Shown here: piece by piece, positions 1-12,729 of the stretch
Position numbering within the stretch: position 1 is the stretch's first letter
Layout of the letters: each line of letters begins with the position of its first letter
Source: a virus
Taxonomy: Duplodnaviria; Heunggongvirae; Uroviricota; Caudoviricetes
Virus record (IMG/VR): IMGVR_UViG_2568526681_000001
Reading direction: 5' to 3' (one strand)
Length of the DNA stretch: 13,081 nucleotides
Position numbers and translations under genes: made by a program
Notes under the pieces: model-generated
Seen by the model: the letters and a program-made list of their open reading frames with translations, nothing else
What the model was told of the DNA's origin: nothing
The model's database searches: none

Positions 1-3000
1 TCACGGGACTGCTGTTGCATAAAGTCCGCTGCTGCTTTTTTCCCGAGGTCATAAACCACCTTCAGGGCAGCCGGACCTATCTGCCCGTTCATGCCGTCGT
101 TATTAATCTCGATATTGTACTGCGGGGCAAACATCGCCATACCTGATCCACAAATCTGTGCCACAACACCCAGCTTACCGTCAGCACCACGACGCAGTGG
201 CAGAATGGCTTCAGGTCCCGCTTCTCCCATCACACCCGCCCCTTTTGCAAAAGCAAAAAACGTCGGACGGTTAACCACCGTGCCACTGTAGCGACTCAAA
301 TCAGCAGACTGATAAATCCCCCCATTGGCATTCAGGGAAAGGCTGCTGAGATCAAATCCCAGTACACTGCCAATCCCTTTTATCGATTTCATCATGGTTG
401 CCTGCGCCAGGATTTTCGCCATATCTGACAGCACAGAAGAGGTGAAGGATTTGAAATTGAGTTTGCCGGTAGTGACAAAAGTTGCCAGGCCATTTCCCAT
501 GTTGCTGAAGGCTGACGAGAACACCTGTTCTGCTGTTTCTGCCGTATTATCTGCATCCACGGTAAAATCCTGAAATGCACGCAGGACTCCGTTTTTCCAG
601 TTACCCTGCACAACTTCAAGCTGTTGCCAGTAACGGCGATTCTCATTCAGTTGTCGGTTCAGGCTCTCCGTCAGCGCCTGCTCGGCCTTTCTGTAGTCAT
701 CCGTGTTATATGTCCCTTTCTGCTCACTATCCCGCCTCAACTGCTCCAGCTGTTGCTGGTATTTCTGGCGAAGACTCAGTTGTACCTGATATCGCTGTCG
801 CTGCTGATCACCCATACCCACCGTGGCGATATCCAGGTCATGTTGCTGACGCTGAGCGCGCTCTTCTTCAGCCAGTTGACTGGTCAGCTGAATTGTTTTT
901 TTCTTCAGCTCGTTGAGTGCCGTCTGTTTCTGAAGCTCCTGCTGTTTTACATCCAGCAGCGTCAGTGCCTGAATCAGTTCATCTTTACGGGCCAGCACAC
1001 TCTTTTCATCTGCCGTCAGTTTTTTCCCGTCCAGGTCGCTGATGCGCTGCTGCAGAGCCAGAAGCTGTTTATGCGCTTCTGTCATCCTTTCCGTGGCAAT
1101 GCCTGCTGACTGTCTGGCAGCAGCAATCTGTCCTTCCACCTGTGCCTGTTGCTGACTGTACTGCAGCAATAACCGGGTGGCCTCATCATTACGGGTTTCG
1201 CGTGTTTTTTTCTTACCGGATGCCAGGGCTTTCTCGTAACGTTCATTTTCACGTTGTATCGCCGCATCCCTGACAGCCTGATCGGCGTACTGCATGGCAT
1301 TAATACGCGCAATTTCACGCTGATGTCGTGCTGCTTCCGTTTCATTCATCCGGTTCAGTGCAGCATTTTCAGCATTACGGCGTTTCTGTTGCTCCTGATA
1401 ATTCCGCTCTGCCTGCTCTTTTGCATCCTGCAAATCCTTCTGGCGTTTTTTCTCCTGAAGCTCGTTAAGACGCTGCTGATCGTATTCAACCTGAGAAGAT
1501 GATGCCGTCCAGGGGAGTCTTTTCGCCCGCGACACTTTCTCCTGTAAAGCGGCAATCTGTTCATCCAGCGAGTCTTCACGACCAATATTCATGGCCGCAT
1601 CCCAGAAACGACTCCACAAATCAGACAGATACTTCAGCGTACTGCCAAGCGCATTGAGGTTATTATCAATATCCGCAGTACGCCGACCGGTTTCCTCTGC
1701 CAGTGCAGACATGGCTATCCGTGCAGCATCACTGGACCGCCCCTGCTCCCCAAGGACGCGTATCTGCTCAAGCTGAGTGGCAGTAAGAAAATGCAGCTCA
1801 TTGTCCAGAGCCTTCGCGGCATTTACAGGATCATCCTTCAGCCGCTTAAACTGATTTATGGTATCGCTGACCGACTGGCCAACCGATCGCTCCATCTGTG
1901 CGGCAGCTCTCGCCACCATACCGATATCGTTTCCACGAAATGCACCACTCCCCACCACCTGAGCCAGCGCACCGGCTGCAGCATGTTGCGTGATACCATT
2001 CCCGGAAATAGCACGACTGAGCGTCCACAGCTGCCCGGCAGTGACTCCGGCATAATGCCCCGTCAGCGACAACTGGCGGTTAAATTCTTCCCCCTCCTTC
2101 TGACCGTCATACCAGGCTTTACCCAGACCATAGACGGCCGCGGCAATACCGCCAATAACCCCGCCAAGCATCATGCCTTTCGGTGACATCAGTGTGTCTA
2201 TCCATCCGGCACGGTTAGCCAGCGTTATCCCGGATCCCCTCAGCGCCCCTAAATTGCCGCGGGCCAGTTCACCTATCAGAACGCCTATCTCCTGGCGGGC
2301 TGCTGCACTTTTCAGACCCAGCGAATGCGTGGCTTTTCCTGCCTGCTCCATTTTGCGGATATACACTTCTGCAGCACTGCTTACCCCCAGCTGGGCTGCC
2401 TTAGCACGAAGCAACTCAGAAGATGAAAGATTCAGGCGGGTTGCCTGCTCTTTAAGCTGACGGATAAACGCCACTTTCTGTCGGGTAGCCTCTTCCTCAG
2501 CCTGTGTAAGAACACGGGTTTTCGCAGTAACCTCAGAAATCAGCGCCAGATAATCCTGCTGACCAATCCCGCCACTGTTTCTGGCCTGTCGGATCTGCTG
2601 CTGAATACGCTGTAATTCCTGCAGCCCCGCACTGGCCTGTTTCACACTGTCAATCTGACGATAAAACGCAGCTGCTGCTTTATCCTGCGCCTCCGCCAGC
2701 GCCCTGGCATGCGCCTGTTCCTCGCGCATTTTCTGGCTCAGTGCCTCCATGCGATGGCGGGTTTGCTCCACCTCCCGGGCCATGCGCTCATGAGCCCGGG
2801 CACTTTTTTCCGCCGTCTGTGCATGGGCGGATGCGGCTGCTGAAGCCGAAGAAGCCGCCTGTGCTGCCTGCCGGGCAGCCTGCGCCTGACGCTCCATAAA
2901 CCGCTGCATACGGGCAGAGGAACGTTCTGCATCGCTGGCCGCTCCATTCAGCAGGTTTTTGATACGGGGAATTTCATTTTTAAACTCCGCCGCATCAATA

Positions 3001-3035
3001 CCCAGATCAATGACCAGGTTGGCTATCTGGTCCAT
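1..3035 (-). CDS. H: Tail tape measure protein (lambda gpH-like), C-terminus truncated by the window edge; at least 1011 codons
   Basis: The minus-strand frame is open from ATG at 3035 (GGAGG Shine-Dalgarno 8 nt upstream; in-frame TGA at 3072-3074 bounds the 5' end) to the window edge; I hand-translated both ends. The N-terminal part is Ala/Gln/Arg/Glu-rich (coiled-coil-like), followed by a Gly-rich hydrophobic segment (GMMLGGVIGGIAAAVYGLG). Near the C-terminus is FAFAKGAGVMGEAGPEAILPLRRGADGKLGVVA, which I recall as a conserved gpH motif. Position directly downstream of G/G-T fits. It is absent from the ORF track because it has no stop within the window. Confidence 0.85.
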   Translation of the reverse strand, partial: MDQIANLVIDLGIDAAEFKNEIPRIKNLLNGAASDAERSSARMQRFMERQAQAARQAAQAASSASAAASAHAQTAEKSARAHERMAREVEQTRHRMEALSQKMREEQAHARALAEAQDKAAAAFYRQIDSVKQASAGLQELQRIQQQIRQARNSGGIGQQDYLALISEVTAKTRVLTQAEEEATRQKVAFIRQLKEQATRLNLSSSELLRAKAAQLGVSSAAEVYIRKMEQAGKATHSLGLKSAAARQEIGVLIGELARGNLGALRGSGITLANRAGWIDTLMSPKGMMLGGVIGGIAAAVYGLGKAWYDGQKEGEEFNRQLSLTGHYAGVTAGQLWTLSRAISGNGITQHAAAGALAQVVGSGAFRGNDIGMVARAAAQMERSVGQSVSDTINQFKRLKDDPVNAAKALDNELHFLTATQLEQIRVLGEQGRSSDAARIAMSALAEETGRRTADIDNNLNALGSTLKYLSDLWSRFWDAAMNIGREDSLDEQIAALQEKVSRAKRLPWTASSSQVEYDQQRLNELQEKKRQKDLQDAKEQAERNYQEQQKRRNAENAALNRMNETEAARHQREIARINAMQYADQAVRDAAIQRENERYEKALASGKKKTRETRNDEATRLLLQYSQQQAQVEGQIAAARQSAGIATERMTEAHKQLLALQQRISDLDGKKLTADEKSVLARKDELIQALTLLDVKQQELQKQTALNELKKKTIQLTSQLAEEERAQRQQHDLDIATVGMGDQQRQRYQVQLSLRQKYQQQLEQLRRDSEQKGTYNTDDYRKAEQALTESLNRQLNENRRYWQQLEVVQGNWKNGVLRAFQDFTVDADNTAETAEQVFSSAFSNMGNGLATFVTTGKLNFKSFTSSVLSDMAKILAQATMMKSIKGIGSVLGFDLSSLSLNANGGIYQSADLSRYSGTVVNRPTFFAFAKGAGVMGEAGPEAILPLRRGADGKLGVVAQICGSGMAMFAPQYNIEINNDGMNGQIGPAALKVVYDLGKKAAADFMQQQSR

Positions 3036-3734
3036 AACGCACACCTCCGGAAATACCTTCCCCAAGATGCATCAGTTCTTCGTCCGTTCGCTCCGGTATC
3101 CCGTCCTCTTCCGGTAAAAGGCTGAAATCAGCCACCGCAGCATCACTGCTGCCGGACACCATTCTCACGATCAATGCCTTCAGCGAGGCAAACTGCGCAT
3201 CCATCCACACATCACTGAAGCTCTGCATCCGGAAATAATCGCCCCACTCACCAAGCTCAGTGGCCGACATTTCCGACAGCATCCGCCGCCAGTCTGCCCG
3301 CCGGAACTCCCGGGCAAGCCGCATGACAAACTGCATTTCCCGCGTCAGGACTTTTCCGGCGTCAGCACCTCATGCTCCAAATCCCCGGCATTCTCAATGG
3401 CCCCCATACCGCTCAGCGACAGAACCATCTCCGCCCCCGCTCCCAGGGCATCATACGACCATGTTGTAATAACGGATGCGCAAAGCGTCTCAACATCCTG
3501 AGACTGTTCCGCATTCCACAGTGAGCGGGAAACCAGCCAGGCATTGATATCCATCCCCATCCGCAGAAAAGCAATCTGTCGTTCAGCCTCCGGCAGTTCT
3601 CCCTCTTCGGCATCAAACTTTGCCGTTCGCTGCTGAACAAACGCCAGATATTCAATTCTCTGCAGCCCGGACAGCTCACTGAGCACCACGGACTGCTTTT
3701 CATAATTAAACGTGCTCTGTTTCAGAAACATCAT
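3007..3734 (-). CDS. Tail assembly chaperone G-T fusion, made by a programmed -1 ribosomal frameshift near the 3' end of G (T-frame part about 3007..3357)
   Basis: The T reading frame (track ORF 3007..3336) is exactly -1 relative to G. It is open upstream only as far as an in-frame TGA about 27 nt before the G stop, so any shift must occur in the last 8 codons of G. An A-rich heptamer G GAA AAG lies there. The G/T arrangement between V and H is conserved in lambda-like phages. The T-frame stop (3007-3009) overlaps the H start by 29 nt. Confidence 0.6.
3345..3734 (-). CDS. G: Tail assembly chaperone G (lambda gpG-like), about 129 aa
   Basis: Start ATG at 3734 (tandem ATGATG, GGTGGAGA Shine-Dalgarno upstream). 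The N-terminus MMFLKQSTFNYEKQSVVLSELSGLQRIEYLAF matches my recollection of lambda gpG (MFLK...TLSELSALQRIEHLA). Sits between V and H. Confidence 0.75.
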   Translation of the reverse strand: MMFLKQSTFNYEKQSVVLSELSGLQRIEYLAFVQQRTAKFDAEEGELPEAERQIAFLRMGMDINAWLVSRSLWNAEQSQDVETLCASVITTWSYDALGAGAEMVLSLSGMGAIENAGDLEHEVLTPEKS

Positions 3735-3747
3735 GTTCTCCACCTGC

Positions 3748-3771
3748 AAAAAAGCCCCGGATAACCGGGGC
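3748..3771 (-). terminator. Intrinsic-terminator-like hairpin between V and G
   Basis: On the minus-strand RNA: GCCCCGG-UUAU-CCGGGGC (7-bp all-GC stem, 4-nt loop) followed directly by UUUUUU. It lies 20 nt after the V stop and just before the G Shine-Dalgarno. The plus-strand side has no U-run, so it is minus-strand specific. Confidence 0.6.
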
Positions 3772-3791
3772 AAATGATGAGTATCGTCCTG

Positions 3792-4535
3792 TTAACCTGC
3801 GGCGCTGACAGCCACCGTAGCCACTGCCACAAAATCGCCGTCAGAAGTCATGCCCACAATGCTGACACTGCCCTGCTTCACGCCTTTCACCGTGGCCACA
3901 AGCCCGTTCAGGGTCACCGTGGCAGTCTGTGGATCTGTCGAATGCACACTGATCGCTTTGTCACTGGCTCCGTCAGGTTTTACTGTAAAGGTCAGCGTGG
4001 TGGTTGCTCCCACTTTTACACTGGCAGATGCCGGTGCCACCGTCAGCCCGGTAACGCTCACTGTTTCAGTGCCTTCCTCTGCCAGATACGGACGCCCCAC
4101 ACCGCTGATTTTCACTGTGCGGGTCATCACGTCTTTTGAGGCAATGGTTTTACCCAGTGAGCTCAGCCAGCCACGGAAAACATCAACAGTGCCGTTGGGA
4201 TATTTGATACGAAACGCGCAGACTTCACCGGAGTCGAACAACTGAACCAGTTTTTTCTGCCCGCTGTCACCCGGACGCCAGGCCAGCGTCGCCGAAGTAT
4301 CACCAACGGATTTCTGCCCCTGGGTTGTTGTTTTCCAGTCTGCATCTTCATCATCGAGATAAGTGTCATCTTCTGCATCAGCGGTCATTTCGCCAGGTTG
4401 CAGATCCTTCACCATCGCAAGACGCAGCCAGTCAGTGTCCTGTAAAGGGTTCGCAAACGGATCGCCACGGCCGGTGTACATCCAGAACGTCGTTCCCGCA
4501 CCTTTCGTTTTTGCCAGTGGATTTGGTGTGGTCAT
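3792..4535 (-). CDS. V: Major tail protein (lambda gpV-like), 247 aa, with C-terminal Ig-like domain
   Basis: Start ATG at 4535 with a strong Shine-Dalgarno (TAAGGAGGTGGTA-ATG). The sequence MTTPNPLAKTKGAGTTFWMYTGRGDPFANPL...DDEDADW...GDTS.TLAW...KYPNGTVDVFRGW...VGRP matches recalled lambda gpV nearly motif for motif. The C-terminal ~90 aa (TVAPASASVKVGATTTLTFTVKPDG...) resembles the Ig-like (Big_2) domain of gpV. The track ORF start at 4610 is an upstream extension overlapping U and was rejected. Confidence 0.9.
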   Translation of the reverse strand: MTTPNPLAKTKGAGTTFWMYTGRGDPFANPLQDTDWLRLAMVKDLQPGEMTADAEDDTYLDDEDADWKTTTQGQKSVGDTSATLAWRPGDSGQKKLVQLFDSGEVCAFRIKYPNGTVDVFRGWLSSLGKTIASKDVMTRTVKISGVGRPYLAEEGTETVSVTGLTVAPASASVKVGATTTLTFTVKPDGASDKAISVHSTDPQTATVTLNGLVATVKGVKQGSVSIVGMTSDGDFVAVATVAVSAAG

Positions 4536-4545
4536 TACCACCTCC

Positions 4546-4947
4546 TTAATTCGTGTACGTGATCTGGTACGTGATTTCCGCCATCGCCCAGGTGGCCATC
4601 TCATTATCACGTTGATAGTTAAAACCGAGTGGGATCAGGGTATCGATGAGTCCGGAAAGTGCCGGTACATCATTCAGGGCCGGGAAAATGGTGCTCTCCA
4701 TCCACATATCCAGCTCTGAATCCGGTGCCTGTGCCCGGATGAAGACAGCAATATGCAGAACAGCCTGCCAGTCATCTTCATCCGTCATTTTTCCGGTGTA
4801 CTGAGCATCACTCAGCCACACCGCCACGGCAGGCAGTTCCTGCGCATCAACAAATGCCGGAAGCCCGTCAAAAAACGTGGCGCTGTCTCCACACTGTTCC
4901 CGAAGGCGTGCCAGTACGACCTGGCGGATTTGTGTATGTCGGTTCAT
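4546..4947 (-). CDS. U: Tail terminator protein (lambda gpU-like), about 133 aa
   Basis: The sequence ...SATFFDGLPAFVDAQELPAVAVWLSDAQYTG...WQAVLHIAVFIRAQAPDSELDMWMESTIFPALNDVPALSGLIDTL...TYQITY matches recalled lambda gpU (GATFFDGRPAVFDEADFPAVAVYLTGAEYTG...PDSELDAWMES...TYVITYEM). I chose ATG at 4947 (MNRHTQ..., aligns to lambda MKHTELR and forms an ATGA overlap with the Z stop); ATG at 4959 is an alternative. The U stop TAA is embedded in the V Shine-Dalgarno. Confidence 0.88.
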   Translation of the reverse strand: MNRHTQIRQVVLARLREQCGDSATFFDGLPAFVDAQELPAVAVWLSDAQYTGKMTDEDDWQAVLHIAVFIRAQAPDSELDMWMESTIFPALNDVPALSGLIDTLIPLGFNYQRDNEMATWAMAEITYQITYTN

Positions 4948-5534
4948 CGGGTCAGCCATAACCTCAGTTGTTGTTTCAGTGCATACCCCAGCTGTTTCGG
5001 CATTTCCGCAGTAATGATGCGGTTGCGGGCATCATGGAATGCCTGTGTCAGCGGTCCGGACAGCGGGATTTTCACTACCTCCACAGGAAGACGATTTTTT
5101 CTTGGCCTGCCCTGATGGTCATGCCCTGTTGCAAAACGCGCTTCAGGAAGACGCCTCAGAACATGCCAGCGGCCATTCGCCAGTTGCTGAACAAATGCCC
5201 CCCGGAAAAAGTATTTTCCCACTCTCAGTCCTTCACCAGCACGTCGCCGTGTTGTGTTCAGTTTGATGGCGGGCAGATTGCCCCGGTTAACGCGGATTCT
5301 GGCCGTCATTTTTCCTGACGGACTGGCTTTAAACACCCGGACACGCTGACGTACCAGTTTCAGGGGGATCCCTTTCACCTGGTTATCTCCCGCAACGGTA
5401 TTCCCGGCAACCTGCCGGGTGGCAACCGAGACCGCTTTCTGTGCCACACGGTTTATCGCCCATGCGCTGGCCTGTGGCACCATACGGGTATCAAGGCTGT
5501 TCAGATTGCGGATGGCATTCTCAAGCCCCTTCAT
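4944..5534 (-). CDS. Z: Tail completion protein (lambda gpZ-like), 196 aa
   Basis: N-terminus MKGLENAIRNLNSL...AINRVAQ... and C-terminus ...QQLANGRWHV...VKIP...PKQLGYALKQQLRLWLTR match recalled lambda gpZ (MAIKGLEQAVENL...INRVAS...QQLKNGRWHV...VKIP...PKELGYALQHQLRM). AGAGG Shine-Dalgarno 6 nt upstream of ATG 5534. Confidence 0.85.
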   Translation of the reverse strand: MKGLENAIRNLNSLDTRMVPQASAWAINRVAQKAVSVATRQVAGNTVAGDNQVKGIPLKLVRQRVRVFKASPSGKMTARIRVNRGNLPAIKLNTTRRRAGEGLRVGKYFFRGAFVQQLANGRWHVLRRLPEARFATGHDHQGRPRKNRLPVEVVKIPLSGPLTQAFHDARNRIITAEMPKQLGYALKQQLRLWLTR

Positions 5535-5545
5535 CCCACACCTCT

Positions 5546-5821
5546 TTACTCAATAAAGATCATTGGCTTACCATTAAAGCGTTCATGCCGTGTGACCGTC
5601 CATTGTTGTCCGTCATAAACAACGCGATCCCCGCGCCGTGGGCGGTATCCCGAAGAAAATACCACCAGAGATACCGCAGGTCCGGACAGAGCATTCAGCT
5701 CTGCCAGTGTTTCTCCCGGGATCACAGTCATATCGACATCATTAATACAGGCCGTTCTTCCCATTCTCCTGACAGTTACCGAGTCCATACGGGAACACAC
5801 AGACTGAAAGGGGGACATCAT
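5546..5821 (-). CDS. Putative head-tail joining protein (gpFII-like), 91 aa
   Basis: Small ORF in the position lambda FII occupies, between head genes and Z. The C-terminal region ([15 protein letters not shown]) loosely resembles the FII C-terminus as I recall it. Its start ATG overlaps the stop of the upstream gene (ATGA). Assignment is by position and weak similarity only. Confidence 0.5.
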
Positions 5822-6288
5822 GAACCACCCCGATCGCCTTTTTCGCCCTTCGGCCCCTGAGGTCCTGCCGGGCCACGCTCACCTGTATCACCCTTTGGCC
5901 CCTGAGGTCCCGGCTCTCCCTTTTCTCCTCTCGGGCCCGTGTCCCCCTTTTCTCCCCTGGCACCACCAAAGTTAATCCTGACAGCGACGACATCACTCCC
6001 GGTACCAGCCTCTTCCCAGACAACCCCGACCAGCGGATCAGAGCCGCTGTTAGTCAGCTGAACTTTTCCGGACTTCAGATAAACCTTCTTACCCGTTTTC
6101 ATATCATCCGTTTTCAGCTTAGGCAGCATAAACACACCTTCGGTCATGCCGTCGCCTGTTTCACCCTGTGGAATATCGGTCAGCGCCACCGCAAAAACAT
6201 CACCCACCTGCACCAGATCTCCGCTGCTGATGGCTGCACTGGCAACAATCGCCACCGTTTTTCCTTCTTCTACAAAATTCTTTGCCAT
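5818..6288 (-). CDS. Putative capsid decoration protein (DUF2190-like N-terminal domain) with a C-terminal collagen-like Gly-X-Y region, 156 aa
   Basis: ATG at 6288 with GGAGA Shine-Dalgarno 5 nt upstream (the track start at 6333 is TTG inside a terminator hairpin and was rejected). N-terminus [36 protein letters not shown]... resembles small phage head-decoration proteins that sit just after the major capsid gene. The C-terminus is 15 uninterrupted G-X-Y triplets. Function assigned by position and recalled family resemblance, without a search. Confidence 0.5.
5821..5964 (-). repeat. Collagen-like Gly-X-Y coding repeat (15 consecutive triplets) forming the C-terminus of the putative decoration protein
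   Basis: Translation reads [48 protein letters not shown]. At nucleotide level the plus strand shows near-repeats such as ggcccctgaggtcc (twice) and cccttttctcc. Confidence 0.8.
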
Positions 6289-6331: not shown

Positions 6332-6350
6332 AAAAAAAGCCCTTACGGGC
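6332..6350 (-). terminator. Candidate weak intrinsic terminator after the capsid gene
   Basis: On the minus-strand RNA: GCCC-GUAA-GGGC (4-bp GC stem, GNRA-type tetraloop) followed by UUUUUUU, starting 25 nt after the capsid stop. The stem is short, so efficiency is uncertain. Confidence 0.4.
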
Positions 6351-6374
6351 CATCAGAGTTGTTGTCTGCGATGT

Positions 6375-8333
6375 TTACGCCGTACATTTCACCAGACCGC
6401 GGTGATCAACTGGCGCGACACCGGCGTCAATACGCACTTTCGTTGTCACGCCATCCACACTGAAGCCCTCCATCTGATCAATATATGGCGTATCCACACC
6501 GTTGAGATAAGCCACTTCAATCGTATCGGAGCCTTTTGACGCAGCCAGGTAGAAGGTGGTCTGGCTGTTATCATCAAGACGAGGCTCTGCAATAACGGTC
6601 GCAAAATCTTTCACCGGGTTAATAATACCGGCGTTAATGTCAGCCCCCTTGACACTTGAGGAGCGAATGACCTGGTTAGCAACAGACTCCATCGCCGTCG
6701 GTACCAGTACGAACGCAGGACGAATATTCAGATGACGCTCCCCCTCTTTCTGAACGCGCATCAACTGGCGGGCTTTATCCAGCGATGCCACGTCCATTGC
6801 AGCGCTCTCCAGTACGTTTGCATGTTTCGCTTTATCGAACAGACTTACATTATCTGTGGAGATTTTCGGGTTAGACGTCAGAATGGCATAAACCAGATCG
6901 GCAATAGTGGATTTCGCCGCACGGCCCAGTTTCATCGGGACATCGGTCAGCATATTCAGATCATCATTGATAATGGCCTGACGGGTGATACTGAACAGCT
7001 CGCCATAGGTCGCCAGTGCAATAGTGGCCTGTTTATCTCCGGTGGTGACGTATTTATATTCCGCCCCTTCACGCACCTGACGCAGAGCACTGAAGCCCCC
7101 CATACCCACACGATGGGCAATTTTAAAATCAGACAACTGACCTTTCCGCGTCCACTGTTCATAGGTTTCAGGGGCATCTTCCCAGCCCTGCAGAATGGCT
7201 TTGTTCGCAACATCCAGCAGAATATTACCGAAGTCAGACGTACTGTGTGTGAACGCCGCACCGACCATCTGCATCGGGTTATAACCGGAAACCCCAATAC
7301 CCCGTTCAGTCAGTGACATACGGGCATATTCACGCAGGGTCATCCCGTTGTAGACATTATCACGTTCGGTTTTTTCAAATCCGGCACGCGCCATCAGCGC
7401 CTGGCGGATCCCGTCCCCCACAAAATTACCGTTACCGGCATAAATATGAGCCGGGGTATTTTTATTCGATGGTGAAAATTCCTTACCCATTTCATTCAGT
7501 AATTTCTCACGGGCTTGATCCAGCGAGCACTCCGGATCAGAAAGACAACTGGCCTGTAATGTCTGATAACGTCCACCAAACATGCCAAACAGATCATTAA
7601 TACCACTCACGCGTGCTTTTTGCTCAGCCAGCACCTGCGCACGGATACTGTTTTCATCCACCACGGGTGCTGCTGCCTGTACTGGCGCCCGGGAGGCTGC
7701 AGGTTCATCATCCTGTACGCGTGGAGCACTGTTGCGTGGCGCAGTAATCATGTTTCGAATAGATTCCGGCATCTTTTTAAATTCCTCTGTACGTTTTGAC
7801 TGAATACATGCCATTGCCTTAACGGCTGGCGTCACCTGGTCAGCAAATCCATGTGCCAGACATTCGGCACCGGACATCCAGGTCTCATCCGCCAGCATGG
7901 CAGCAATTTCATCGGTGGTTTTCCCGGTTTTCTGTGCATAAGCGGGTAACAGAACCGCCTCAACTTTATCGAGCAGGTCGGCATAGGTGCGCATGTCCTC
8001 CGCATCACCGCCCGTAAAGCCAAATGGTTTATGAATCATCATGAAAGTGTTTTCCGGCATAATGACCGGGTTTCCCACCATCGCAATGACCGACGCCATT
8101 GACGCCGCCACACCGTCGACATAAACGGTAATGGACGCACCATGTGTTTTCAGCGCATTAAAAATGGCGATGCCTTCAAAGACATCACCACCCGGTGAAT
8201 TAATATGGAGATTAATGTGGGTGATATCTCCCAGTGCATTCAGATCACTGATAAACTGCTTCGCTGTAACACCCCAGAAACCAATCTCGTCATAAATATA
8301 AATATCCGCGTCACTCTGGTGACCAGCCTGCAT
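6375..8333 (-). CDS. Fused ClpP-like prohead serine protease / linker (scaffold-like) / major capsid protein, about 652 aa
   Basis: N-terminal domain has ClpP-like motifs: ...IYIYDEIGFWGV...INSPGGDVFEGIAIFNAL...VDGVAASMASVIAMVG (Ser motif) ...MMIHKP (His motif). A Pro/Ala/Gln-rich linker follows (APRNSAPRVQDDEPAASRAPVQAAAPVVD...), then a ~330 aa C-terminal domain typical of phage major capsid proteins. Single uninterrupted frame. I chose ATG at 8333, 13 nt after the portal stop; the track start at 8594 would overlap portal by ~250 nt. The Shine-Dalgarno at 8333 is weak, so the start is uncertain. Confidence 0.82.
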   Translation of the reverse strand: MQAGHQSDADIYIYDEIGFWGVTAKQFISDLNALGDITHINLHINSPGGDVFEGIAIFNALKTHGASITVYVDGVAASMASVIAMVGNPVIMPENTFMMIHKPFGFTGGDAEDMRTYADLLDKVEAVLLPAYAQKTGKTTDEIAAMLADETWMSGAECLAHGFADQVTPAVKAMACIQSKRTEEFKKMPESIRNMITAPRNSAPRVQDDEPAASRAPVQAAAPVVDENSIRAQVLAEQKARVSGINDLFGMFGGRYQTLQASCLSDPECSLDQAREKLLNEMGKEFSPSNKNTPAHIYAGNGNFVGDGIRQALMARAGFEKTERDNVYNGMTLREYARMSLTERGIGVSGYNPMQMVGAAFTHSTSDFGNILLDVANKAILQGWEDAPETYEQWTRKGQLSDFKIAHRVGMGGFSALRQVREGAEYKYVTTGDKQATIALATYGELFSITRQAIINDDLNMLTDVPMKLGRAAKSTIADLVYAILTSNPKISTDNVSLFDKAKHANVLESAAMDVASLDKARQLMRVQKEGERHLNIRPAFVLVPTAMESVANQVIRSSSVKGADINAGIINPVKDFATVIAEPRLDDNSQTTFYLAASKGSDTIEVAYLNGVDTPYIDQMEGFSVDGVTTKVRIDAGVAPVDHRGLVKCTA

Positions 8334-8346
8334 CCTGAACCAGGAA

Positions 8347-9852
8347 TTATTCTTCGGACTGGTTGTCGGTGTGCTGCGGCTCCTGTCGTTTCGTTGCGGC
8401 ACTGCTGCCTCCTTTATCACTGGCCGGATCGGTATCAAATACCAGATCCAGCTTGCGGTTTTCATCAATTTCGGCCTTACGCCGACGTTTGACATCATCC
8501 GGATTACGACCACCTGCACGTACCCAGTCTGATTCTGTCGCCGCTCCACCACGAATCTGGATTTTCCAGGCCTCAGCCTCCTTGACAGGATCAATCCACG
8601 GCATGACCGGACCAGAATAGGTTGCGTTATATAGTGTTTTCATATCCACATCCGACGTAATTTTCAGCAATCCCGCGGCCACAACCATATTCAGCCATGC
8701 CCGGTACACCGGACGGGTTACAGCACCAATAAAACAGTCCTGCAGGATCAGATAACCATCTGTGGACTCAACCAGCTCCTGTCGCTGGGCACTGTAGGTA
8801 CCGTTATAATTACGTGCTGCACTGGAAAAACTCAGACGTGTGCCCGCCGCCACGGCCCGCAACTGACCATTACGAAAAGTTTCCAGGTTAGTGTTAGGCC
8901 GATCAGATTTGACCATGCCGATATCTTCCCCCTTACGCAGATCGTCATAAATAATGCCGGGTGTGATATGCAGTTCCCGATCATTATCTTTATTCGTCAC
9001 GGGGGCCTCATAATCCTGCCCGTCTCCTTTACGGATATACAGCCCCAGTGCTGCAGCAATGCGCGCCGCTGTCAGCTCGGAATCTTCATATTCCTTAAGC
9101 GCGCTGATCCGCATCAGCACACCTGACAACATGGATGTGCCACGCGTCTGATGCAGCCGGCGGGTAAACTTCAGATGCACCATATTTTCAGCGGCGATCT
9201 CTTTGGTATCACTCTGTCGCCCGGTGACCGGATAATTTTTATAAACCAGGTATTTTTTCGGCCTGCCCCACTCATCCAGAAAAACCCCCTGATTCATTCC
9301 CGCAGACTCATCACTGAACATGGGTACAAAATCCGGCTCCATTGCCTCGAGCCAGAAAGGCACGCCGGCAGTCCGCACCAGTCCGGCCCCTGCACCACTG
9401 ACCATCTGGGCAAACACTTCACCATCACGTAACCAGGTACGCAGCAACAAACGCTCGAGCATGGGGCGCGTATGCTGCCCGGTCACATCCGGGCTGACAG
9501 ACCATTCCGCCCACAAACGACGGATAATCATTGCCAGGTCTGTAGCCATATCACCGTTTTTCAGTAATGGCTGGGGTTCAACAATGATCCCTTTTGCGCC
9601 AATCACCCGCTCCTCAAGCTTGTCGAAAGCACCGATGACAAGGTCATGATTGATATCCAGAAAACGGGCCTGCTCCCGCAGGGATACCGCCCCGTACTTA
9701 CTGAGCTGGTCGGCAGAACGGTTTTCCCGTCGGGCTTTGTGTGTGCGGGTGGGTTTCACTGCCTCATAGGCCTGAATTAATGCTCTTGACCGCAACCTCG
9801 CAGCTTTCCAGCCTGGTGAAAAAGCACCAATCACATCATCCAGAATTGCCAT
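8347..9852 (-). CDS. B: Portal protein (lambda gpB-like), 501 aa
   Basis: Size and position (after terminase large subunit and W) fit. The internal region ...LSFSSAARNYNGTYSAQRQELVESTDGYLILQDCFIGAVTRPVYRAWL... parallels recalled lambda gpB (...SYEQLSRNYAQMSYSTARASANESWAYFMGRRKFVASRQASQMFLCWL...). Its start ATG overlaps the W stop (ATGA). Confidence 0.85.
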   Translation of the reverse strand: MAILDDVIGAFSPGWKAARLRSRALIQAYEAVKPTRTHKARRENRSADQLSKYGAVSLREQARFLDINHDLVIGAFDKLEERVIGAKGIIVEPQPLLKNGDMATDLAMIIRRLWAEWSVSPDVTGQHTRPMLERLLLRTWLRDGEVFAQMVSGAGAGLVRTAGVPFWLEAMEPDFVPMFSDESAGMNQGVFLDEWGRPKKYLVYKNYPVTGRQSDTKEIAAENMVHLKFTRRLHQTRGTSMLSGVLMRISALKEYEDSELTAARIAAALGLYIRKGDGQDYEAPVTNKDNDRELHITPGIIYDDLRKGEDIGMVKSDRPNTNLETFRNGQLRAVAAGTRLSFSSAARNYNGTYSAQRQELVESTDGYLILQDCFIGAVTRPVYRAWLNMVVAAGLLKITSDVDMKTLYNATYSGPVMPWIDPVKEAEAWKIQIRGGAATESDWVRAGGRNPDDVKRRRKAEIDENRKLDLVFDTDPASDKGGSSAATKRQEPQHTDNQSEE

Positions 9853-10064
9853 CAGAACCTCGCCAGTTTATATCCCGGATCCCCCCGTCGCCGCGCAGTC
9901 ATGGCAGCAAGACGCCGCTCCCACTCCTGACGCCCCCGTCGGATCTCGGACAGATTTTCCATGGTCATCTGCTGACCATTAAAAGTGACGGATTTTCCGT
10001 CCAGAACTGCCATTTCCGCATCGATATAACGCTGGATCATGGCTTCAATATCATTCTGGTTCAT
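9852..10064 (-). CDS. W: Head completion / head-tail joining protein (lambda gpW-like), about 70 aa
   Basis: Small ORF between terminase large subunit and portal. ...AEMAVLDGKSVTFNGQQMTMENLSEI...ARRRGDPGY resembles recalled lambda gpW (...[31 protein letters not shown]...TQRRRGPAGF). I chose ATG at 10064 (6-nt spacing from GGAGG, ATGA overlap with the A stop); ATG at 10070 is the alternative. Confidence 0.7.
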   Translation of the reverse strand: MNQNDIEAMIQRYIDAEMAVLDGKSVTFNGQQMTMENLSEIRRGRQEWERRLAAMTARRRGDPGYKLARF

Positions 10065-12160
10065 AACCATCCTCCGGAAGTCACCCAGGGATTTTCCTCA
10101 TCGGGTACCGTTTTTTTTCGTTTCTTTTTTCTGTCCGGCTGGAGCACTGGCTCCGGCAGAACAGGTTGCTCAGTGTTATCACTGACGCACTCCAGCCAGG
10201 TTTCCCTGCATGCCCATTCTGGCGCATCCGGCCACTGAATTTTCTCGTAACCATGCAGAATGACCAGAGCCTCGGCATACACCATCAGGTCAAAGGCTTC
10301 GTTAGCCCCCCGCCCTGGTTTGCTCCACTTTCCGTCACTGCTCCGCTCTTCATACGTCAGTTCGTCGTAAAACCAGCTCCCCAGCCAGTCAGGAAAATGC
10401 ACATAGCCGGGACCCGGTGAATCACGCCATAACGCATTATTAACCCGGTCTTTCAGGGCATCCGTCTGAAGAAGCCAGAGTGGCACATCACCTGCGGCCT
10501 GCGCCCGTCGGCCCGTTCGTCCGGTGTTATCAGGGAATGTACGGGTGATCAGTTTTGCTCGCCGGATGCTGTCGCCCTTAAACAGGTAAATACTTTTACC
10601 AAGTCCATCACGACGGCAACGACGCCAGAATTTATAGGCATTATCAGTGACCCCGTCTTCACCGCCGGAGTCCACCGCCATTGCCATCAGTCGCATTTGT
10701 TGAGAAGGATCGGAGGCCAGCGGCCAGCTTTTATGAAAAACATCCGTCAGCAGGACATCCCAGTCTTCCGGATAGCTGGCCGGATCAATTCGCTGGCTCT
10801 CCCCGTCGCTGTCACCGCGCAATGACTGCGTGATGTTGTAACGATCAATAATCCAGCGTTCGCCACGACTGCCATAGCCCGTTACCTGAACCACAAAACG
10901 GCGATGACGTCCCGCCTGCACATCCACTGTCGCCACAAGGAAATTAACGCCATCCGGCACACTGCGTGAAGGAACTGGCTCTGCCCGCTGCTCAAGCAGT
11001 TCACTTTTTCGTTGCTCCATGCTGGCGCGGGGAAGATAAGGCAATCCCCAGTCGGTGTTGATAACCGCCCTGAGTGTTTCTTCGCTTCCTGTCGCTTCAT
11101 ACTCCTGTTCTGCAGTCAGTAATTTGTAAACCAGTTGCGCCCAGGTCTGATACGCAGCAGCTGGCCCTTCCATCCAGAAGCTGGCAATCCTTGAATTACG
11201 TGGCGTTCCGGTAACATTCCCCTCCATGTCAATGTGCTCACCATCCCGCAACCAGACCCCACGTCCGTTCAGTTCACGTTTCATGTCTGAGGTGATTCGG
11301 TTACCACAATGAGGACATAATATATGAGCCGATTTACTGGCTTTTACAGGATCAGGATTGTCACGATACCCCGTCATAGTCTCCATGGATGGCTGAAAAT
11401 ACCCCCCACAATCCGGACAGGGCCAGTACCAGCGACGACGATCACCACGGTTATAGAGTGACAGGATCCCCGTAGTGGGGGGAGCTTCATGTGGAGAGGT
11501 TTTCCGCCACTTACTGTCCGAAATTTCGCGTCCGGGTGAACTCTCCACAAGTGTCATCCCTGCTGACATAAACGTCGTGGTACGTTTGGAAGCCAGGGAG
11601 AAACCATCACCTTCACCATCAATATCATCAGGCCAGCGATCATAATCTGTTAATGCTACAAATCGATAATCAGAAGACGACATTATATTAACTGACGGCC
11701 AACCAATTTTTAGATAATTACCCGCCTTAAAAGTCTTATCATGGACGTTATTATCATTGGTTCGTGGGCTCATTCGCCGAACAACCTCTTTACTGACCCG
11801 GAATGTGCGATCAAGGCGTTTTCTGGAATGCTCCCTTGCTTTCTCTTCTGTCATTTGAATTAACAAAAAGTCTGCAGGTTCACAAACCACGCTGTAAACA
11901 ATCCAGCCATCAATTAATCCAACCGTTTTTCCTGTTCGCGCTGGCCCGACAAAAACAACCGCATCATAGTCACGGGAAGACAAACAATTCATTGGCTCAA
12001 TGATGTAAGGCGTCAAAGATGCATCCCATGGCAATGAACTTCCCCCACCCAGTGGCACTCGCATATATTTCTCAACAGCTTCTGCCACTGGCATTCTTGT
12101 GGGTGGTTTTAGTAATTCGGAAACATCACGCCTGATAGCACTTGCAGAAGCAAAGGTCAT
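10061..12160 (-). CDS. A: Terminase large subunit (lambda gpA family), 699 aa
   Basis: Length is typical for the gpA family. Contains a P-loop-like VFVGPARTGKT and a zinc-ribbon-like CPDCGG...CPHCG, with acidic nuclease-like motifs in the C-terminal half. Start ATG overlaps the Nu1-like stop (ATGA). Sits directly downstream of the small subunit and cos. Confidence 0.9.
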   Translation of the reverse strand: MTFASASAIRRDVSELLKPPTRMPVAEAVEKYMRVPLGGGSSLPWDASLTPYIIEPMNCLSSRDYDAVVFVGPARTGKTVGLIDGWIVYSVVCEPADFLLIQMTEEKAREHSRKRLDRTFRVSKEVVRRMSPRTNDNNVHDKTFKAGNYLKIGWPSVNIMSSSDYRFVALTDYDRWPDDIDGEGDGFSLASKRTTTFMSAGMTLVESSPGREISDSKWRKTSPHEAPPTTGILSLYNRGDRRRWYWPCPDCGGYFQPSMETMTGYRDNPDPVKASKSAHILCPHCGNRITSDMKRELNGRGVWLRDGEHIDMEGNVTGTPRNSRIASFWMEGPAAAYQTWAQLVYKLLTAEQEYEATGSEETLRAVINTDWGLPYLPRASMEQRKSELLEQRAEPVPSRSVPDGVNFLVATVDVQAGRHRRFVVQVTGYGSRGERWIIDRYNITQSLRGDSDGESQRIDPASYPEDWDVLLTDVFHKSWPLASDPSQQMRLMAMAVDSGGEDGVTDNAYKFWRRCRRDGLGKSIYLFKGDSIRRAKLITRTFPDNTGRTGRRAQAAGDVPLWLLQTDALKDRVNNALWRDSPGPGYVHFPDWLGSWFYDELTYEERSSDGKWSKPGRGANEAFDLMVYAEALVILHGYEKIQWPDAPEWACRETWLECVSDNTEQPVLPEPVLQPDRKKKRKKTVPDEENPWVTSGGWL

Positions 12161-12660
12161 AATTCCACCTCATCATCTCTTTCTCTCATTTCAGTTGATA
12201 ATGCCTCACGGATATCATCAACTGCTCGTTGAGCCTCAGCGATTTGTGATGCACTCCAGCCTCGATCTCGTTCCAGTTTGTCAGGCCACGTATCCAGTAC
12301 CTGAGTAACGACCTTCAACATCAACGCCATTTCGCGATGTACGTCACTGGCAGGAACAAGTTGTTTTAATGTCGTTTCCATTTTGATACGTTCATTTTCT
12401 GACTGGAACCAGTCTTTACGCTCTTTAGGCTCCATTCGTGACGGGTCATGTATATCGGAAGCAATGACTGATTTACTCTCAAACAAAGCGGGTCCGACAT
12501 CTCTCAATGCATAAACAGGATTACCACGAACAGTACCAGCAACAGGGATATTGGCCTCCAGCAGTCTTTTTTTTACCACCTTCCTGTCCATAGCAAAGGC
12601 TTCTGCAATTTTCGCGATACTCCAGTGATAAACGTCTCCAATATTACTGATATTCGACAT
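12157..12660 (-). CDS. Terminase small subunit (Nu1-like DNA-packaging protein with N-terminal helix-turn-helix), about 167 aa
   Basis: ATG at 12660 with GGAGAGG Shine-Dalgarno 5 nt upstream (the track start at 12666 is GTG). The N-terminus SNISNIGDVYHWSIAKIAEAFAMDRKVVKKRL looks like a helix-turn-helix, and the C-terminus is acidic. Lies between cos and the large subunit, translationally coupled to it. Family assigned by position and architecture; direct similarity to lambda Nu1 is weak. Confidence 0.7.
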   Translation of the reverse strand: MSNISNIGDVYHWSIAKIAEAFAMDRKVVKKRLLEANIPVAGTVRGNPVYALRDVGPALFESKSVIASDIHDPSRMEPKERKDWFQSENERIKMETTLKQLVPASDVHREMALMLKVVTQVLDTWPDKLERDRGWSASQIAEAQRAVDDIREALSTEMRERDDEVEL

Positions 12661-12729
12661 CCCCACCTCTCCACACCAGCTCGAATATCATTTTTCTCAT
12701 TAAAAACAGGACATTAAAAACTGGTCAGA

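Follow-up and report, generated by a model that had tools for sequence, protein, structure and literature searches.

The window analysed here is a 13,081-nucleotide (nt) stretch of viral DNA (IMG/VR record IMGVR_UViG_2568526681_000001, class Caudoviricetes), and it carries on its minus strand a single gene encoding a ClpP-like protease, a scaffold-like block and a major capsid protein in one polypeptide. The gene most likely extends over 6375..8402 (675 codons and a stop, with no internal stop codon), an extent consistent with its matches to the NCBI family NF045540 and PHROG 133 and with its colinearity with the corresponding gene of Gifsy-2. We regard it, with a probability of about 0.92, as the head-shell gene of a lambdoid Escherichia coli prophage of the Gifsy-2/cdtI/mEp460 type, whose product would be a capsid precursor that cleaves itself. 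This reading is carried by what was examined directly: an open frame, three segments with their folds, catalytic residues that are intact, a fusion that is conserved, synteny with Gifsy-2 and the signals at the start site. The gene belongs to an already known family, which was described for Gifsy-2 in 2010, is curated at NCBI and is present in more than one third of complete E. coli genomes.

An earlier note on this DNA, made from the letters alone, had described one uninterrupted frame of about 652 codons, and direct reading agrees: from ATG 8333 to the stop codon at 6375–6377 the minus-strand frame comprises 652 codons without interruption. The frame remains open on the 5′ side of ATG 8333, past position 8594. 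Within the 3′ end of the portal gene, this upstream part contains, in order, the Shine–Dalgarno (SD) sequence AAGGAGG (8408..8414, minus strand, read directly and running from 8414 to 8408), a 5-nt spacer and GTG 8402, which lies 69 bases upstream of ATG 8333. The predicted pairing energy with the tail of the 16S ribosomal RNA (rRNA) at GTG 8402 is −11.6 kcal/mol, the strongest among the gene starts scored in the window, and just 2% of the minus-strand ATGs of the window attain −9 kcal/mol. The SD sequence falls within the portal codons for Asp-Lys-Gly-Gly, which do not change from one relative to another although the remainder of the portal tail does, and the unit of SD and GTG is kept in cdtI, Eeyore and an Stx2d phage despite the varying C-terminal tail of the portal. 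Starting at GTG 8402, the gene shares its first 56 nt with the end of the portal gene and gains an N-terminal extension of 23 codons (MPQRNDRSRSTPTTSPKNNSWFR; 8334..8402, minus strand), which the earlier note had missed and which comparative conservation brings out: the residues S-W-F/Y, coded between the portal stop codon (8347–8349) and ATG 8333, are conserved in the alignment across E. coli, Salmonella and Pseudomonas. Residue numbers below refer to the 675-residue version that starts at GTG 8402, unless the 652-residue version is named.

The N-terminal part of the protein is a serine protease domain of the ClpP-like type (MEROPS S14), composed of residues 30–195 (7818..8315, minus strand) and identified by Pfam, NCBIfam, PDB and AlphaFold comparisons. 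Pfam CLP_protease matches residues 23–168 of the 652-residue version (E = 4.5e-36), NF045542 (Clp_rel_HeadMat) scores 215.8 bits over the protease part, and solved ClpP chains match the N-terminal part (lowest E = 3.8e-16) in alignments that pair the active-site Ser and His motifs. In the full-length AlphaFold model, the predicted local distance difference test (pLDDT) score is approximately 70–87 across this domain. Catalytic Ser101 (motif GVAASMAS; codon 8100..8102, minus strand) aligns with the active-site Ser of ClpP in the PDB alignments, is invariant in two alignments of close relatives (A1 and A2) and is 99% conserved in the wide family, comprising the window protein and 130 representatives of 50%-identity clusters, which are approximately 35–60% identical to it. 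Catalytic His124 (motif MIHKP; codon 8031..8033, minus strand) is conserved in 100% of these 131 sequences. The putative third residue of the triad, Asp188 (motif GFADQV; codon 7839..7841, minus strand), aligns with the GF/LxD motif of ClpP and is invariant in A1 and A2. The Ser, His and Asp residues are thus all found in conserved motifs of ClpP and the S14 family. Because Ser and His are retained at 99–100% while overall identity is only about 35–60%, the sequence comparison argues for a working protease. The ClpP-like domain that the earlier note had recognized by its GVAASMAS and MIHKP motifs is therefore confirmed by the CLP_protease match and by the conserved Ser and His; both motifs are read in the protein, the second as MMIHKP.

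The C-terminal part, residues 327–675 (6378..7424, minus strand), is a major capsid protein with a predicted HK97 fold, as assigned by Pfam, AlphaFold and Foldseek. Pfam Phage_capsid_4 matches residues 354–649 of the 652-residue version (E = 1.7e-54), and a match to Mu-like_gpT was also obtained; by sequence, the capsid part finds only weak matches in the PDB, to capsid proteins resembling Mu gpT (E = 2e-4). An AlphaFold model of residues 309–675, built from an alignment of 148 sequences, reached a pLDDT of 90 and a predicted template modelling score (pTM) of 0.84. A Foldseek search of the PDB with this model gave 355 matches at E ≤ 1e-3, of which the best 50 are tailed-phage capsids (HK97, D3 and T5 among them), encapsulins and related protein cages, all of which we take to be HK97-fold proteins. 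The matches to the HK97, D3 and T5 capsids and to the encapsulins have a probability of 1.00. The HK97 capsid fold of this domain is therefore predicted with confidence from the model. The earlier note had placed a capsid domain in the same frame as the protease, and both segments, when put through domain search and structure prediction as that note had proposed, matched the fold expected of them.

The segment between protease and capsid spans approximately 130 residues and consists of four pieces. The first, a connector after the protease (AMACIQSKRTEEFKKMPESIRNMITAP; residues 196–222; 7737..7817, minus strand), is conserved among the enterobacterial and Pseudomonas members, and its Pro212 is 95% conserved in the wide family. 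It is followed by a hypervariable Pro/Ala-rich linker (residues 223–248; 7659..7736, minus strand), whose 26 residues include 7 Ala, 4 Pro and 4 Val; the linker shows little conservation, is predicted to be disordered (pLDDT <50) and differs in length by 0–20 residues between the alleles of close relatives. It is a hotspot of length and sequence variation in alleles that are otherwise 91–98% identical, with insertions of up to approximately 20 Thr/Gln/Ala-rich residues. The third piece is a conserved helical block (residues 249–308, DENSIRAQVLAEQKARV...REKLLNEMGKE; 7479..7658, minus strand), delineated by AlphaFold and alignment, in which three helices are predicted (residues 250–273, 280–288 and 294–307; pLDDT 68–86). 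Of the linker that the earlier note had placed between the two domains, the Pro/Ala-rich stretch is present at residues 223–248, but the segment is more than a linker, as the conserved block of about 60 residues follows it. This block is shared with a second fusion family, NF045541/phrog_4523, which matches from residue ~211–220 onward. From its position, its helicity and analogy with other systems, we infer that it is a scaffolding module resembling a delta-domain.

The fourth piece is a disordered junction (residues 309–326, FSPSNKNTPAHIYAGNGN; 7425..7478, minus strand), which appears as a low-confidence coil in both models, comes directly before the first helix in the model of the HK97 fold and carries an insertion or deletion in Gifsy-2. 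The maturation cleavage that frees the capsid protein would most likely fall in this junction, placing the mature N-terminus within residues ~308–327.

The window protein reaches 978.5 bits against NF045540 ('ClpP-like prohead protease/major capsid protein fusion protein') over profile positions 2–651 of 652, where the curated cut-off is 475 bits, and its match to PHROG 133 covers residues 15–675. With NF045541 it scores 399 bits, below the cut-off of 525, over residues 220–672 only, and it is not a member of that family, whose match takes in the connector, the scaffold-like block and the capsid domain (residue ~211–220 to the end) and excludes the protease part. At the DNA level, the gene is 96–97% identical over its full length to those of the cultured coliphages mEp460, cdtI, Ayreon, Tritos, HannyBb and phi458 and 77% identical to those of several Stx2 phages, and each of the matched phage records (mEp460, cdtI, Stx2 and others) annotates one coding sequence for the fusion. 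Conservation of the fusion was found in 28 phage records by DNA and in 80 by protein. It is carried, under the NCBI fusion-protein name, by 2,017 of the 5,426 complete E. coli genomes (presence being counted at a minimum of 80% of the gene length) and occurs in many Pseudomonas genomes, where the prophage copies are approximately 55% identical.

When 1.84 billion cluster representatives were searched exhaustively and without a profile, 7,029 matches at E ≤ 1e-30 were obtained; among the best 130 matches of 600–800 residues, about 128 align over the protease, middle and capsid parts. A scan of viral contigs for related loci recovered copies that are 97–98% identical, plus one at 91%, and the gene order portal–fusion–decoration recurs in cdtI, an Stx2d phage and a Pseudomonas phage. 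By these sequence comparisons the fusion is an old, widespread and stable architecture. The suspicion of the earlier note that it was probably not new is upheld by NF045540, by the Gifsy-2 precedent and by the 2,017 E. coli genomes, and the in-frame conservation that the note had proposed to check is seen in the cultured phages, in the E. coli genomes and in about 128 of the 130 cluster representatives.

The closest described counterpart is the gene at 22471–24561 of the Salmonella phage Gifsy-2, the product of which is 69% identical to the window protein and colinear with it; the alignment takes in 662 positions and is gapped nowhere but in the linker and the junction. Synteny between Gifsy-2 and the window extends over the whole module, TerL through tail gene G. 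Shared neighbours of this type are a gpA-type terminase, a small adaptor and a lambda-family portal upstream, and a DUF2190 decoration protein followed by Z, U and V downstream. The members of NF045540/PHROG 133, which include Gifsy-2, cdtI, mEp460, Ayreon, Tritos, some Stx2 phages and Pseudomonas prophages, have the same three-part order, and the window gene shows no difference of substance from this family, in which linker length and sequence vary between alleles. The tripartite capsid gene of Gifsy-2 was the subject of work by Effantin et al. in 2010 (Virology 402:355), in which only the C-terminal domain is reported to be present in the mature T = 7 capsids, which carry a gpD-like trimer. 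The geometry of Gifsy-2 is listed as T = 7 (PMC8814770), and its trimeric cement protein sits on the three-fold axes (PMC8538268).

The terminase and portal of the window are 69% and 65% identical, respectively, to those of Gifsy-2, versus 24% and 20% to lambda A and B, and the tail proteins Z, U, V and G are 39–69% identical to their Gifsy-2 counterparts and 33–55% to those of lambda. By these identities the window is a late region of the Gifsy-2/cdtI type throughout. Relative to lambda, the whole head module, from the terminase to the decoration gene, is different, and the tail is lambda-like. The earlier note had seen a head module that is mosaic with respect to a lambda-like terminase and tail; its view of the tail stands, but the terminase and portal prove to be of the Gifsy-2 type.

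BLASTP searches (E ≤ 1) found no match of the fusion protein to lambda C, Nu3, D or E and none of the decoration protein to lambda D, and the window holds no detectable homologues of lambda FI and FII and no convincing match to a lambda-type cos motif. Lambda has the same logic and order, comprising a portal, a protease of a ClpP-related clan overlapping the 3′ end of the portal gene, a scaffold, a shell protein and a trimeric cement protein. Lambda C overlaps B by 20 nt, as the fusion gene of the window overlaps its portal gene. The lambda protease is annotated as S49 family, whereas that of the window is S14-type, and lambda gene D precedes E, whereas the decoration gene of the window follows the capsid. 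The earlier note had treated lambda C, Nu3 and E as separately encoded. This is correct for the capsid protein E, which has its own gene, but nu3 (5132–5737) is nested in frame in C (4418–5737), so that protease and scaffold are already fused in lambda.

In HK97, gp5 is likewise an HK97-fold shell protein; its N-terminal delta domain, a helical extension resembling a scaffold, is cut off by the prohead protease. HK97 heads are among the structural matches of the window capsid domain in Foldseek. The HK97 protease (gp4) is encoded by a separate gene and belongs to an unrelated family. HK97 crosslinks its shell without a decoration protein, whereas the window has the protease in the same chain and a gene for a cement protein. 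The window gene merges the protease–scaffold fusion of lambda and the scaffold–capsid fusion of HK97 into one chain.

In the assembly pathway that we propose, a precursor of 675 residues (75 kDa) would be translated from GTG 8402, with initiation coupled to the 3′ end of the portal gene. The capsid domains would assemble on the portal into a T = 7 procapsid that encloses the protease and scaffold parts (the first 300-odd residues) of each subunit, and the crowding and high local concentration inside could activate the ClpP-like proteases. These would cut the precursor in the disordered junction (residues ~308–327, window 7425–7478), freeing a capsid protein of an expected 38–40 kDa, and would degrade the internal parts, the fragments of which would exit. 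DNA would then be packaged and the shell would expand, after which trimers of the decoration protein encoded downstream would bind the expanded shell. Self-cleavage, the position of the cut, the shell geometry and the 1:1 ratio of protease to capsid before cleavage are all proposed here by homology. The fixed 1:1 stoichiometry and obligatory self-processing put forward in the earlier note can reasonably be inferred; the ratio would follow from the single frame, unless an internal start exists. The family offers a convenient natural system in which to study what holds a prohead protease inactive before assembly, and how a shell forms with a cargo of approximately 35 kDa on every subunit. Both questions belong to the known family and are not discoveries of the window.

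Several observations weigh against the reading of the gene as a self-cleaving protease–scaffold–capsid precursor. In the full-length AlphaFold model (33 sequences), the mean pLDDT is 50, the capsid part is unusable and no packing of the three parts can be read; the middle segment (residues 196–326) had no significant match in Pfam or the PDB that would speak for a scaffold role; ATG 8333 is conserved within the E. coli subgroup, making it a possible additional start; and Asp188 is only 69% conserved across the wide family, which leaves the third residue of the triad less certain. The variability of Asp188 would suit a ClpP-like domain that is catalytically inactive and serves solely as internal scaffold mass, the cut being made by a host protease or another phage protease, as would the fact that cellular ClpP requires assembly into a ring and usually an ATPase partner. 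No phage prohead protease of the ClpP-like type is known to need ClpX or ClpA. The near-invariance of Ser101 and His124 across the 131 divergent sequences points to selection on catalysis, the head module has no other protease gene, and stand-alone homologues of the domain are annotated as head maturation proteases in hundreds of phages; we therefore hold an inactive domain to be very improbable. Still less credible is that the fusion is an artefact or a pseudogene, in which separate genes were joined by a sequencing error or by mutation in a decaying prophage. Nothing positive favours this, although frameshifted copies do exist elsewhere, such as that at locus L088 (2411–4386; GCA_000755365.1, contig BBMQ01000056), where a frame change splits the fusion into an open reading frame (ORF) for a 201-residue protease and another for a 443-residue scaffold–capsid protein. 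That split copy still codes for the connector upstream of its ATG and is hence a derived, broken form. The frame is uninterrupted in the plaque-forming phages mEp460, cdtI, Ayreon, Tritos and HannyBb at 97% identity, and it is kept in the 2,017 complete E. coli genomes and in more than 120 protein clusters at 35–60% identity. These conservation data rule out an artefact or pseudogene for practical purposes. The neighbourhood of L088 itself resembles a decayed or rearranged prophage, with a fragment of a DUF1441 small terminase after the capsid gene.

Readings of the self-cleaving fusion also differ in where translation begins. The gene could start at ATG 8333 and encode 652 residues, the open frame upstream being an accident of the portal overlap: this codon sits 14 nt past the portal stop, a typical spot for coupled genes, it is the start chosen in some annotations of homologues (648–652 residues), and the NCBIfam and Pfam protease models begin only downstream of it. 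ATG 8333 has, however, nearly no Shine–Dalgarno pairing (−2.6 kcal/mol versus −11.6 kcal/mol for GTG 8402), in agreement with the weak ribosome-binding site at 8333 that the earlier note had pointed out, along with the open extension to 8594. The residue at the position of this codon, Met24, is Ile in Gifsy-2 and in a Pseudomonas phage, neither of which has a start codon nearby, so that in both the gene must start upstream; in the Pseudomonas phage, GGAGG, 5 nt and then an ATG are found further upstream than the Met24 position. Among the cluster representatives of the wide family, 42% have Ile and 11% have Met at position 24, whereas Trp21, three residues upstream, is conserved. Moreover, AAAGGAGGCANCA-GTG is kept in relatives of 74–77% identity though the neighbouring portal residues vary. 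On the strength of the SD sequence, the conservation of SD and GTG, the conserved upstream residues and the Ile at position 24, the gene most likely occupies 6375–8402, with GTG 8402 (675 residues) rather than ATG 8333, the 5′ end given in the earlier note, as its start; the shorter gene is an unlikely, minor possibility.

An extra start inside the gene is a slender prospect as well. The candidate, a weak one, is the codon of Met211 (ATG 7772; 7770–7772, minus strand), from which a scaffold–capsid protein of 465 residues without the protease would be made, as lambda Nu3 is made inside C, the precedent for such a nested start. An SD-like GAGGA lies 10 nt upstream, with a pairing energy of −6.0 kcal/mol that is near those of real genes of the operon (−6.3 to −7.9 kcal/mol), and GAGGA, GAGGAG or AGGAG is found 9–10 nt upstream in the window, cdtI, Stx2d, Eeyore, Gifsy-2 and a Pseudomonas phage. 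All of 33 aligned enterobacterial and Pseudomonas sequences have Met211-Pro212 in common, and gene callers pick Met211 when the upstream part is frameshifted or cut off. Yet only 8 of the 131 cluster representatives have Met at this position, where Ala, Val and Ile are commoner; an equally good SD sequence precedes approximately 10.6% of the minus-strand ATGs of the window and 3 of the 26 in-frame ATGs of the fusion gene; and the SD-like bases are accounted for by conserved Glu/Asp-Phe codons. Two stand-alone scaffold–capsid proteins (P0291 and P0346) were considered as natural splits at Met211 and rejected, one being a frameshifted fusion and the other cut by the end of its contig. In the enterobacterial and Pseudomonas branch, Met211 with its GAGGA may conceivably, at long odds, act as a second start, so that a procapsid would hold fewer proteases than subunits. 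Such a nesting, like that of lambda C and Nu3, would bring the protease-to-capsid ratio under 1:1 and make it tunable.

The practical value of the window gene lies in annotation, where names and start codons are inconsistent and the evidence favours the start preceded by an SD sequence inside the portal gene. Homologue products in public records have lengths of 648, 651/652, 656, 673–675, 686/690 and 707 residues, and at least five different start codons are used. The protein appears under the names 'head maturation protease', 'major head protein', 'head-tail preconnector protein Nu3', 'preconnector protease C', 'Clp protease ClpP' and 'protease/scaffold protein'.

The gene for the head decoration (cement) protein, the partner of the capsid protein, lies downstream of the fusion gene (5818..6288, minus strand; Pfam Phage_cement_2 (DUF2190, PF09956) and Collagen; phrog_122). 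Its product, of 156 residues, is homologous to STM1034 of Gifsy-2, with 58–59% identity over the first 106 residues, and ends in a collagen-like tail of approximately 16 Gly-X-Y triplets encoded by a 3′ extension (5818–5969, minus strand). The decoration genes of Gifsy-2, cdtI and mEp460 have no such tail, and the 151-nt collagen segment is missing from all 16 closely related cultured phages. Among the 1,827 complete E. coli genomes that have the region, it is present in two, those of strains GF4 (NZ_CP172217) and Ch1 (NZ_CP127316), both chicken-associated. In a collection of 5.8 billion proteins, the combination of cement and collagen domains was found in one 90%-identity cluster (44 members) among the matches listed. 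The DNA of the collagen segment has only partial similarity (70–77%) to the collagen repeats of prophage tail-fibre genes. A collagen-tailed trimer would plausibly put a short fibre at each three-fold position of the head. A collagen-like capsid protein of another family is SPP1 gp12. The collagen-tailed decoration protein is a rarer feature than the adjacent fusion gene.

All long genes of the window are on the minus strand. Upstream of the fusion gene are a small terminase of the DUF1441 type (12157–12666), a gpA-type large terminase (10061–12160), a head–tail adaptor of 72 residues (9852–10070) and a portal of the lambda family (8347..9852; Pfam Phage_portal_2, E = 3e-80). Downstream of the decoration gene, a small gene (5546–5821) encodes a protein of 91 residues matching Pfam PF13856. 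By its position this product is probably a head-completion or joining protein. PF13856 ('Gifsy-2') is described as an ATP-binding sugar transporter from a prophage, and the gene is named variously as minor tail protein, head closure Hc1 or DNA breaking-rejoining protein. The tail genes that follow are Z (4944–5534), U (4546–4959), V (listed ORF 3792–4610) and G (3345–3773), and an ORF in the position of lambda T (3007–3336), for which no homology was found. An open frame of the size of a tape-measure gene, with more than 1,000 codons, occupies positions 1–3035 of the minus strand, with its first Met at approximately 3035; it is missing from the ORF list because it runs off the left end of the window.

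Between the stop codon of the capsid gene and the start of the decoration gene, a consensus scan marked a terminator-like hairpin (GGCCCGTAAGGGCT; 6338..6351, minus strand) followed by TTTTTTT, the T-run reaching to approximately 6328. The mEp460 and Ayreon records list a 'terminator' feature within the matched stretch, which takes in the decoration gene and the next gene. The hairpin could lower the expression of the downstream genes relative to the capsid protein.

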